This document shows, piece by piece, positions 30,991-32,797 of a DNA stretch of 64,000 bases. The notes under the pieces are model-generated. The model had not been told where the DNA came from. It searched no databases and worked only from the letters and a program-made list of their open reading frames with translations. The stretch is from a virus. Made by a program: the position numbers and the translations under genes. The stretch covers positions 1 through 64,000 of IMG/VR virus record IMGVR_UViG_3300033058_000221; one strand, 5' to 3'. Within the stretch, counting starts at the first letter, position 1, and every line of letters starts with the position of its first letter.

Positions 30991-31048
30991 CAGTCGATGG
31001 TCACCAGATAACAGTCACATAAACCTGTGACTCATGGAGGTTTTGAAA

Positions 31049-31561
31049 GTGAATATTAACCAGATCGAACCGAAATTTAAGGAACTTGAAAAAGGCGTTG
31101 ACGGCGCAATGGAGCAGATCGGATCGATTGAAAAACGTCTTGAACAAATTGCAGCACGGCTTCAAGAACACGAAGGAGCAACCGCAGACGACGCTCACGG
31201 TGTTGAAGTTGAACCCACCGGAGACGAAGCGGAGCAGGAAGCAGAAACGCCTACCGAAATCGCAACCGAGACCGCAGAAGAAGCGGTTGGTACGACGGTT
31301 GGTCCGCTTGGCAATGTGCCTGGTGCTGCGGAAAGAATCTTTGAAACGGCAGAGGAATCCGTAGAAAAGGAGGAGTTCATAGACGAGGATGCCACCTTTC
31401 GAGTTCCCGAACAGGAACCCGAACCGGAAAAGGTGGAGCCTGTGGCGACTGTTAAAGTGGTTGTTTCGGGCGACTTAGACCCCGTCACCGCGTCGCTTCT
31501 TAAGCGTCTGGAACACATTAATACAGACGTTGTGAAAGTTACTGTTGATAAACGAGAATAA
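31049..31561 (+). CDS. acidic hypothetical protein (GTG 31049 preferred over ATG 31034)
   Basis: GGAGG lies 8 nt before GTG 31049, while ATG 31034 has no SD. The N-terminus VNINQIEPKFKELEKG parallels the N-terminus of the preceding protein. Confidence 0.45.
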   Translation: MNINQIEPKFKELEKGVDGAMEQIGSIEKRLEQIAARLQEHEGATADDAHGVEVEPTGDEAEQEAETPTEIATETAEEAVGTTVGPLGNVPGAAERIFETAEESVEKEEFIDEDATFRVPEQEPEPEKVEPVATVKVVVSGDLDPVTASLLKRLEHINTDVVKVTVDKRE

Positions 31562-31776
31562 TGGAAAGAATCAGAGTAGACGGTATCATCATCAAGGCGT
31601 ATAAGGGCACGAGGTTCGATGTGCGATCTGACGAGAATCCTAACCATATCGTCTTTTGCACGCTGTCGGGTAAAATGCGACAACGCAAATTCCGTGTCAA
31701 CCCCGGCGATGCCGTCATTATTGAAATATCACCGTATGACCTCACAAAAGGTCGTATCGTATGGAGGAAAAAATGA
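31561..31776 (+). CDS. infA: translation initiation factor IF-1 homologue, 71 aa
   Basis: Full-length S1-like OB similarity to bacterial InfA: ...SGKMRQRKFRVNPGDAVIIEISPYDLTKGRIVWR versus E. coli [34 protein letters not shown]. Confidence 0.9.
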   Translation: MERIRVDGIIIKAYKGTRFDVRSDENPNHIVFCTLSGKMRQRKFRVNPGDAVIIEISPYDLTKGRIVWRKK

Positions 31777-32504
31777 GAGATCTATGGCTGGTTATACTAC
31801 TTGCGATCCTGATCGCATTTCCAGTGTACGCGAACGAAATCGGTTTTACCATATCACAACTTCACGAAGAAATAGACTGGGGAGGCACCGCTAATTTAAG
31901 CGGCACCCTTGCAGGTCTCGACGCTGAGTTAGACATCCAGGCACAATCGGGTGATCTCATTCGCGGACGCTACCGCGGAGAAGTCGGACTCGCAAACTTC
32001 AAGGTTTTTCAGGATGGAACTTTCAAAGGCTATACCCTTGACTCGCTCGGTCGTCAATCCGATATTGGCATCAAGGGTGAAGTTGGTGTCGGGGGTCTGA
32101 ACGTTGCCGTCGGTATTTTCGGACGAAACGCAGGGGAATTCGGGCCCCCCAACGCCTACGGCACACTTCGCGACTTGGGCTACGACGAAGCCACTCTCGA
32201 AGCGATCGGTGGGCTGGATACACTCAACCCTGCACCAACGGGGCTTTCTATTCGAGGCGGTAATTCTCTGAATCTGCTACTCTCAACTGAGTTTGAAGTC
32301 GCTGATCTCGATGTGGAATTGCGAGTGCTACCCCAACTCACTGGCGAGGTCAAGGCACACCAAGCGTTGCTGCTTTTACAAACCGATTATCAGTTGACAG
32401 ATAACTTGAAACTCAACCTCGGTGCCGACATCGCGACGCAGCTTGTAGAGGATACAATCGAGTATGAAACAGCGACCGTCGCGACGGTTTCACTTGAGTT
32501 TTGA
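31773..32504 (+). CDS. secreted beta-barrel outer-membrane-like protein, 243 aa
   Basis: ATG 31773 (GGAGG RBS, ATGA overlap with infA). Signal peptide MRDLWLVILLAILIAFPVYA-NE. Alternating Gly/aromatic strands and a C-terminal ...VSLEF ending in Phe, as in OMP beta-signals. Confidence 0.55.
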   Translation: MRDLWLVILLAILIAFPVYANEIGFTISQLHEEIDWGGTANLSGTLAGLDAELDIQAQSGDLIRGRYRGEVGLANFKVFQDGTFKGYTLDSLGRQSDIGIKGEVGVGGLNVAVGIFGRNAGEFGPPNAYGTLRDLGYDEATLEAIGGLDTLNPAPTGLSIRGGNSLNLLLSTEFEVADLDVELRVLPQLTGEVKAHQALLLLQTDYQLTDNLKLNLGADIATQLVEDTIEYETATVATVSLEF

Positions 32505-32506
32505 CA

Positions 32507-32535
32507 TTGACAAAAATGGGGCAATAGTGTAAAAT
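32507..32535 (+). promoter_or_regulatory. sigma70-type promoter TTGACA-17 nt-TAAAAT
   Basis: ttgaca (32507-32512; a second ttgaca sits at 32501) and taaaat (32530-32535). It follows the OMP stop and lies about 190 nt upstream of the tRNA. Confidence 0.55.
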
Positions 32536-32724: not shown

Positions 32725-32797
32725 TGCAGGGTGGAGAAATTGGTATCTCACAAGGCTCATAACCTTGAGGTTGCTCGTTCAAGTCGAGTCCCTGCAA
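32725..32797 (+). tRNA. tRNA with anticodon CAT (elongator Met or Ile2/lysidine type; no encoded CCA)
   Basis: Hand-folded cloverleaf: acceptor tgcaggg/ccctgca, U8, D-stem gaga/tctc with loop aattggta (G18G19), anticodon stem caagg/ccttg with loop ctCATaa, variable aggtt, T-arm gctcg-ttcaagt-cgagt, discriminator A. Confidence 0.85.

Follow-up and report, generated by a model that had tools for sequence, protein, structure and literature searches.

A divergent initiation factor IF-1 homologue and an initiator-derived tRNA in a 70-kb temperate phage

Genes for IF1 and IF3, both initiation factors, were reported in huge phages in 2020 (Al-Shayeb et al., PMC7162821), and IF-1A is a core gene of the Jug phages (PMC12880540). 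IF-1 is also carried by Lak megaphages and by a 469-kb Sinorhizobium phage, and at least 553 stretches that encode it are present in IMG/VR. Phage IF-1 as such is already known, mostly from giant phages, and the takeover of translation initiation by phages has so far been inferred almost wholly from the gene lists of huge uncultured phages. The IMG/VR contigs with IF-1 that we checked were, without exception (15 of 15), fragments that are 4-49% complete and imply genomes of approximately 200-590 kb, in agreement with an earlier sequence-only reading of this DNA, which held that phage translation factors occur mainly in huge genomes. As all of these contigs come from large genomes, the complete 70-kb temperate phage described here is an atypical carrier.

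Some viral IF-1 loci have tRNA genes in the vicinity. On two IMG/VR contigs of 373 and 390 kb (L032:6207-6281 and L034:6207-6281), a tRNA with the anticodon CUA (amber suppressor type; called Pyl by ARAGORN) lies 9 nt after IF-1, which hints at a recoded phage with a suppressor tRNA as the neighbour of IF-1. In one clade of fragments from huge phages, unusually long tRNA calls of 99-101 nt were found about 0.4-1.1 kb upstream of IF-1 (L010:5488-5586, L011:5051-5150, L013:3074-3174, and L014:4814-4914). For two of them a four-base 'tggg' anticodon was called, and these calls may represent intron-bearing or otherwise odd tRNAs.

The phage and its late gene block

The stretch of DNA that we analysed, hereafter the window, comprises the first 64 kb of a 70,164-bp contig (C51) that belongs to a 4.9-Mb assembly of 131 contigs (G000). 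C51 closes with a second copy of its first 55 bases; such an overlap usually marks a molecule that is circular or terminally redundant, and the contig thus seems to have been assembled whole. It encodes a large terminase subunit (TerL), a portal protein, a major head protein, a lysozyme, an SNase-type nuclease, and a tyrosine integrase (87 bits), and its GC content is 49.3%, compared with 56.6% for the assembly. We found no sequence, spacer-like or other, common to C51 and the rest of the assembly. Taken together, the hallmark genes, the integrase, the overlapping ends, and the lack of shared sequence identify C51 as a complete temperate tailed phage of approximately 70.1 kb that was binned with a bacterium.

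Judged from records with an identical InfA, the bin is a Chloroflexota MAG (Anaerolineae, Aggregatilineales/Phototrophicaceae). The link to this bacterium as the host of the phage is unsupported. Capsid relatives were detected neither in 150 other genomes of the MAG's family nor in GTDB representatives, and two capsid homologues with 92-94% identity (P0122 and P0123), on contigs of up to 69 kb, had been binned by their submitters in Candidatus Poribacteria MAGs. Binning of this family of phages of about 70 kb is thus inconsistent between Poribacteria and, for C51, Chloroflexota; the 49% GC content and an OMP-like gene of C51 would fit a diderm host better. The source records suggest a sponge-type microbiome. 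A near-DNA search with 20 kb of the phage gave no match among deposited phages, a capsid scan of the viral collection returned a single 17.5-kb relative that ends before the position of IF-1, and a scan with the OMP-like gene added little.

The IF-1 homologue is an ATG-initiated ORF of 71 codons on the plus strand (31561-31776). It lies in the lysis/late block, which is marked by a phage lysozyme (29657-30241, plus strand; PF00959, 29.8 bits; phrog_7 endolysin), and is preceded by a gene for an acidic coiled-coil protein (31034-31561, plus strand) and followed by one for an OMP-like, secreted, beta-rich protein with a signal peptide (31773-32504, plus strand). The translational coupling to both neighbours that had been proposed from the sequence is borne out at both junctions. 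Upstream, a TAATG stop-start overlap (31559-31563, plus strand) makes the last base of the preceding TAA (31559-31561) the first base of the IF-1 ATG (31561-63), and the Shine-Dalgarno sequence of the IF-1 gene itself is weak. Downstream, the TGA of IF-1 (31774-76, plus strand) overlaps the next ATG (31773-75) as ATGA, and a GGAGG Shine-Dalgarno sequence within the last codons of IF-1 (31763-67, plus strand) is separated from that ATG by a 5-nt spacer. Overlaps of 1 or 4 nt between stop and start codons were counted in 20 of 74 same-strand phage gene pairs and, with the same crude gene calling, in 47 of 342 pairs on four contigs of the MAG, a modest excess that is typical of phages.

Five related viral contigs were identified in IMG/VR, with lysozymes 72-79% identical to that of C51. 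Four of them (L044-L047) share the order of a nuclease, a holin-like gene, the lysozyme, and two post-lysozyme genes; by tblastn, the coiled-coil protein is 52-56% identical in these four contigs, with the same gene order, and the OMP-like gene, which is reached in L044 and L045, is 34-42% identical. Instead of IF-1, the relatives have two unrelated ORFs at this position, one of 64-66 aa and the other of 168-241 aa. These ORFs were located at L044:10012-10937, L045:9026-9747, and L046:10070-10814, and the longer one varies between contigs by internal deletion or frameshift. Since the relatives have other genes here, IF-1 can be regarded as cargo that occupies a variable position within the conserved late block; its absence from the close relatives L044-L047 also indicates that it is dispensable for this phage type. 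Neither a promoter nor a terminator was detected from the lysis genes up to IF-1, and late co-transcription with the lysis block is consequently the probable mode of expression. The only strong promoter within 27.4-33.4 kb is a near-consensus sigma-70 promoter (TTGACA-17-TAAAAT, 11 of 12 positions; 32507-32535, plus strand), which follows the OMP-like gene.

The MAG has a canonical infA of its own on another contig, C122 (119.8 bits), whose product is 44% identical to the phage protein. This gene lies about 220 bp from that for bS21 (G000:C122:88760-89348, minus strand), forming an infA-rpsU pair rather than being part of the usual ribosomal-protein (spc/alpha-type) cluster. The GC and GC3 contents of the phage IF-1 gene match those of its phage neighbours. 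With phage genes on both flanks, phage-like GC, and this low identity to the MAG's infA, the ORF is phage-encoded and not a misassembled host gene, the outcome that the sequence-only reading had said would refute it.

A conserved docking surface and a rebuilt helix-44 loop

The similarity of the ORF to InfA, which had been noticed by eye, lies far above chance. The 71-residue protein is present exactly as described and exceeded the curated cut-offs of both TIGR00008 (NCBIfam; 71.4 bits, E = 4.4e-20, residues 3-70; cut-off 61.15) and PF01176 (Pfam; 67.7 bits, E = 6.7e-19, full length; cut-off 30.2), and its sequence matched 12 chains of solved IF-1 structures (E from 1e-14 to 1e-7). It also matched phrog_30201 over its whole length (59 bits). 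The AF2 model (pLDDT 91.3) has five strands (residues 4-13, 18-23, 30-35, 51-56, and 63-69) and a short helix between strands 3 and 4 (residues 37-41), which corresponds to a predicted single OB fold. In a Foldseek search with the model, the top 11 matches were all bacterial IF-1 (TM 0.87-0.95), and superposition on 30S-bound E. coli IF1 (9fco_I) gave a TM of 0.93 and an rmsd of 0.7 A, an agreement that is partly built in because the alignment used by AF2 consisted mostly of canonical IF-1s.

We compared the phage protein column by column with 119 bacterial IF-1 sequences, and invariance was also read in 81 aligned sequences. All invariant residues are kept (S36-G37-K38-M39-R40, G49, D50, V52, Y59, D60, G64, R65, and R69). 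In C. difficile numbering, K39, R41, and R46 of IF-1 contact the 530 loop and A1492/A1493, Y60 and R66 form the S12 face, and Arg69 is the C-terminal contact (PMC10913371, PMC4611024). The corresponding contact residues of the phage protein, K38, R40, R45, Y59, R65, and R69, are all present; five of these six positions are invariant in the 81 sequences, and position 45 is R or K.

The beta1-beta2 loop, which in cellular IF-1 enters the 16S helix 44 minor groove, is different. The canonical loop L-P-N-x-x-F-(R/K)-V, whose L, P, and R/K occur in 116, 111, and 99 of the 119 bacterial sequences, reads Y-K-G-T-R-F-D-V in the phage protein, in which only F and V are kept. Near-invariant positions are altered at residues 14 (Y instead of L), 15 (K instead of P), 20 (D instead of R/K), 23, 25, 32, 34, and 44, the last three being L32F, H34T, and I44F, and two residues are inserted at 26-27, in the beta2-beta3 turn. 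The departures are concentrated at residues 14-34, with I44F in addition, so the N-terminal third is, as had been remarked earlier, the most diverged part of the protein. Basic residues in the rebuilt loop are relocated (K15, R18) but still present, and the net charge is +8, against +5 for the InfA of the MAG. The main docking surface is thus kept and the helix-44 loop rebuilt, and with the loss of the L-P-N...F-(R/K)-V loop the binding geometry or the function of the phage IF-1 may differ. The combination of kept ribosome contacts with a rebuilt loop offers a natural experiment on the role of the helix-44 loop in IF-1.

Close relatives of the protein are scarce. Among 5.8 billion clustered proteins, the closest (P0002, on a 5.6-kb contig) is 86% identical and the next best at most 57%. 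None of the 10 residues at which the phage IF-1 and P0002 differ falls on any of the 28 conserved positions (P = 0.004 if placement were random), a pattern that points to purifying selection. When a profile of the three most similar sequences was run against 1.84 billion representatives, only the query's own cluster scored below 1e-30. Approximately 15 representatives among the top 150 profile matches combine the two-residue insertion and W68 with a (K/R)-G loop that replaces L-P-N; across this group, which we call the KG-loop clade, the ribosome-specific residues, Arg69 and the SGKMR helix among them, are all invariant. Its members form clusters of 1-5 sequences, come from metagenomes only, and lie on contigs of at most 196 kb. 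In a quick tree built after removal of the loop columns (58 columns), 14 of the 15 members were split from all canonical bacterial and viral IF-1s (SH-aLRT 94), a result to be read knowing that the group had been picked by the loop feature itself and that long branches may attract each other. On this evidence, the phage IF-1 belongs to a small, rare, metagenome-only KG-loop clade.

Most viral IF-1s retain an L-P-(N/G) loop. When about 187 IMG/VR loci with IF-1 were screened, the KG-loop signature turned up once, and only in part (L241), and in deposited phage genomes the KG-loop members had no match above 52%. In tree analysis the phage protein fell outside the main IMG/VR viral IF-1 clade, and no donor was identifiable in the IF-1 tree (72 columns, unstarred branches). 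A metagenome scan with IF-1 was dominated by cellular IF-1s sharing one motif.

An initiator-derived tRNA downstream of IF-1

About 950 bp downstream of IF-1 and 190 nt behind the strong promoter, ARAGORN predicts a 73-nt tRNA-Met(CAU) without an encoded CCA (32725-32797, plus strand; Rfam tRNA, 61 bits). It has A11:U24, G2:C71, C3:G70, and A73, a Watson-Crick U1:A72 pair, and an anticodon stem with A29:U41, G30:C40, and G31:C39, the au/GC/GC type. An elongator reading of this tRNA was dropped after comparison with the three CAU tRNAs of the assembly. A11:U24, a purine11:pyrimidine24 pair, is an initiator hallmark, and in the assembly it was found only in the phage tRNA, the initiator of the MAG, and one tRNA-Pro, with Y11:R24 in 44 of the 47 tRNAs. 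The tRNA-Pro(UGG) in question, on G000:C54, is the only non-initiator cellular tRNA with A11:U24; it has an imperfect anticodon stem, and its contig may be foreign to the MAG. In a BLAST search of the assembly and 20 related genomes, the phage tRNA matched in G000 and also in 11 of the 20, where each genome had one locus except G006, which had two. All matches that were inspected (G000 and five genomes of the same genus) were initiator tRNAs, with 72-75% identity. The phage tRNA and the MAG initiator have the same anticodon loop, and both stems of the phage tRNA differ from those of the cellular initiators. The initiator tRNAs of the MAG genus have U1xU72 instead of the usual C1xA72 (G000:C57:203702-203774, minus strand, and loci L137-L141 in five related genomes).

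In bacterial initiators, formylation is determined and EF-Tu kept out by the 1x72 mismatch in combination with pairs 2:71 and 3:70 (PMC3017606), and a paired 1:72 was found in work on E. coli to permit use by EF-Tu and to weaken initiator identity. The phage tRNA lacks the mismatch, and with its U1:A72 pair we class it as initiator-derived rather than as a proven initiator. The au/GC/GC stem is a natural initiator variant of mycoplasmas and rhizobia that sustains E. coli, with G30:C40 as the critical pair (PMC5389676), and in place of three consecutive G:C pairs at 29-31:39-41 it is this variant that we observed. Five further viral contigs of 14-55 kb (L291-L295) encode an initiator-type tRNA(CAU) whose 22-nt au/GC/GC anticodon arm is identical to that of the phage tRNA; in four of them the 1x72 mismatch is present. 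An initiator tRNA with this arm is a recurrent phage variant. No IF-1 was present in the fetched flanks of these five contigs, no tRNA in the examined parts of the relatives L043-L048, and no tRNA(CAU) within 6 kb of IF-1 at any of 40 other viral IF-1 loci. The existence of an initiator-like tRNA whose 1:72 is paired is relevant to the question of how strictly bacteria enforce initiator identity.

Proposed role and comparison with known systems

With moderate confidence, we consider the protein most likely to be a ribosome-binding IF-1 that is made late in infection. The gene would be the penultimate one of the lysis/late transcript, with its translation coupled to that of the preceding gene. 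Because the residues for the 530 loop, for the flipped-out A1492/A1493, for S12, and for the Arg69 contact are kept, the phage IF-1 would be expected to bind, like cellular IF-1, in the A site of the host 30S; owing to the rebuilt loop it should still bind, but with changed affinity or release kinetics. That the protein binds the ribosome, is made late, and benefits the phage is predicted from the sequence. IF-1 and the initiator-derived tRNA would together raise the supply of two small initiation components, which would suit a genome with many stop-start overlaps, and translation of IF-1 itself would depend on such a junction. Translational coupling is stimulated by IF1 and falls sharply when IF1 is depleted to 25%, and initiator tRNA can displace the P-site tRNA to start scanning (both in work reviewed in PMC12548453). 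As IF1 and initiator tRNA stimulate coupled re-initiation, the earlier suggestion about stop-start overlaps, made in connection with a possible bias of initiation towards phage mRNAs, has some backing in the literature. A further and more tentative proposal, which we consider possible though doubtful, is that the KG-loop IF-1s constitute a phage-borne class of initiation factors with a re-engineered helix-44 contact, paired here with a phage initiator-type tRNA to change how host ribosomes start. Such a pair might favour termination-reinitiation at overlapping phage genes or relax IF3-type proofreading, and, if real, would mean that a small temperate phage has a module of two genes for initiation.

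Four other readings were weighed. In one, the phage copies are a back-up that replaces host IF-1 and, above all, initiator tRNA when initiation is stopped by host shutoff or by an abortive-infection toxin such as a tRNA-fMet-cutting nuclease of the VapC type; IF-1 would then act as IF-1, and the benefit would be insurance rather than reprogramming. VapC toxins do cleave initiator tRNA, and phage tRNAs have been proposed to counter tRNA-depleting defences (PMC10264068). The strong promoter of the phage tRNA, its divergence from cellular initiators in both stems, and the identical arm on initiator-type tRNAs of five other viral contigs are consistent with such a role. However, no defence known to be directed against IF-1 was found, the anticodon loop equals that of the MAG initiator whereas the evasion signature in PMC10264068 consists of loop mutations, and IF-1 and the tRNA lie in separate transcription units, so that we regard this reading as unlikely.

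The protein could also work off the ribosome as a general RNA chaperone, a cold-shock-like OB-fold protein that melts structure in late mRNAs or antiterminates and is no longer an initiation factor. Cellular IF1 has chaperone activity, and its overproduction can suppress csp defects; the S1/CspA-like OB fold, the raised positive charge, and the lost canonical helix-44 loop of the phage protein point in the same direction. A generic chaperone, however, would not need the ribosome-specific residues, including Arg69 and the SGKMR helix, that are invariant across the KG-loop clade, which makes this role quite improbable. An A-site blocker is a very unlikely third reading, in which the protein with its altered loop would mimic IF-1 but leave the ribosome slowly, and would thereby throttle host translation or exclude superinfecting phages. 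The changed part is indeed the kinetic element, the helix-44 loop, and an IF1-derived peptide and excess IF1 have been reported or argued to inhibit translation (PMC10913371); yet the gene is placed in the late/lysis block, when the phage needs maximal translation, its own mRNAs would be affected as well, and there is no separate promoter for expression in a lysogen. Finally, although the contig was binned with a bacterial MAG, the idea of an artefact, whether as an infA of the host on a contig that is chimeric or misbinned or as a passenger gene in decay, is exceedingly improbable and refuted as far as the sequence goes, since the flanking phage genes recur in the same order in IMG/VR viral contigs, the ORF and both overlaps are intact, the ORF is constrained, the GC is phage-like, the identity to the MAG infA is low, and nothing is shared with the assembly.

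Compared with cellular IF-1 (TIGR00008, PF01176; PDB 1HR0, 9FCO, 4QL5), the phage protein has the same length and the same five-strand OB barrel with a short helix, and shares the invariant beta3-beta4 helix loop, the SPYDL...GRI strand, and Arg69. No cellular IF-1 is more than 57% identical to it, and the phage gene sits in the late operon of a temperate phage without adjoining ribosomal-protein genes. The whole-length match to phrog_30201, a phage family without functional annotation, indicates that IF-1-like proteins are already catalogued among phage proteins; as this score is below that of the cellular IF-1 model, the phage IF-1 is not a typical member of that family. The natural au/GC/GC initiators (PMC5389676) share A29:U41, G30:C40, G31:C39, the CAU anticodon, A11:U24, G2:C71, and C3:G70 with the phage tRNA, which differs from them in having a U1:A72 pair and no mismatch, in being phage-encoded, and in having its own promoter.

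With the huge phages (PMC7162821, Lak, and Jug PMC12880540) the locus has in common a phage-borne, small, single-domain infA homologue that is presumed to act on host ribosomes. In contrast to those phages, with genomes of at least 200 kb and several translation genes, the genome here is complete, temperate, and 70 kb in size. Six-frame searches of the phage contig found no Fmt, Def, bS21, or IF-3, and Pfam scans of about 48 ORFs of C51 found no other translation genes, so that the one tRNA is the sole other translation gene. Such a compact temperate phage provides a minimal system in which cloning for work in laboratory strains would involve only a 216-bp gene and a tRNA. Relative to the known phage IF-1s, three things are new: the temperate genome is small, the protein belongs to the rare KG-loop clade and has a rebuilt loop for helix 44, and an initiator-derived tRNA accompanies the gene.
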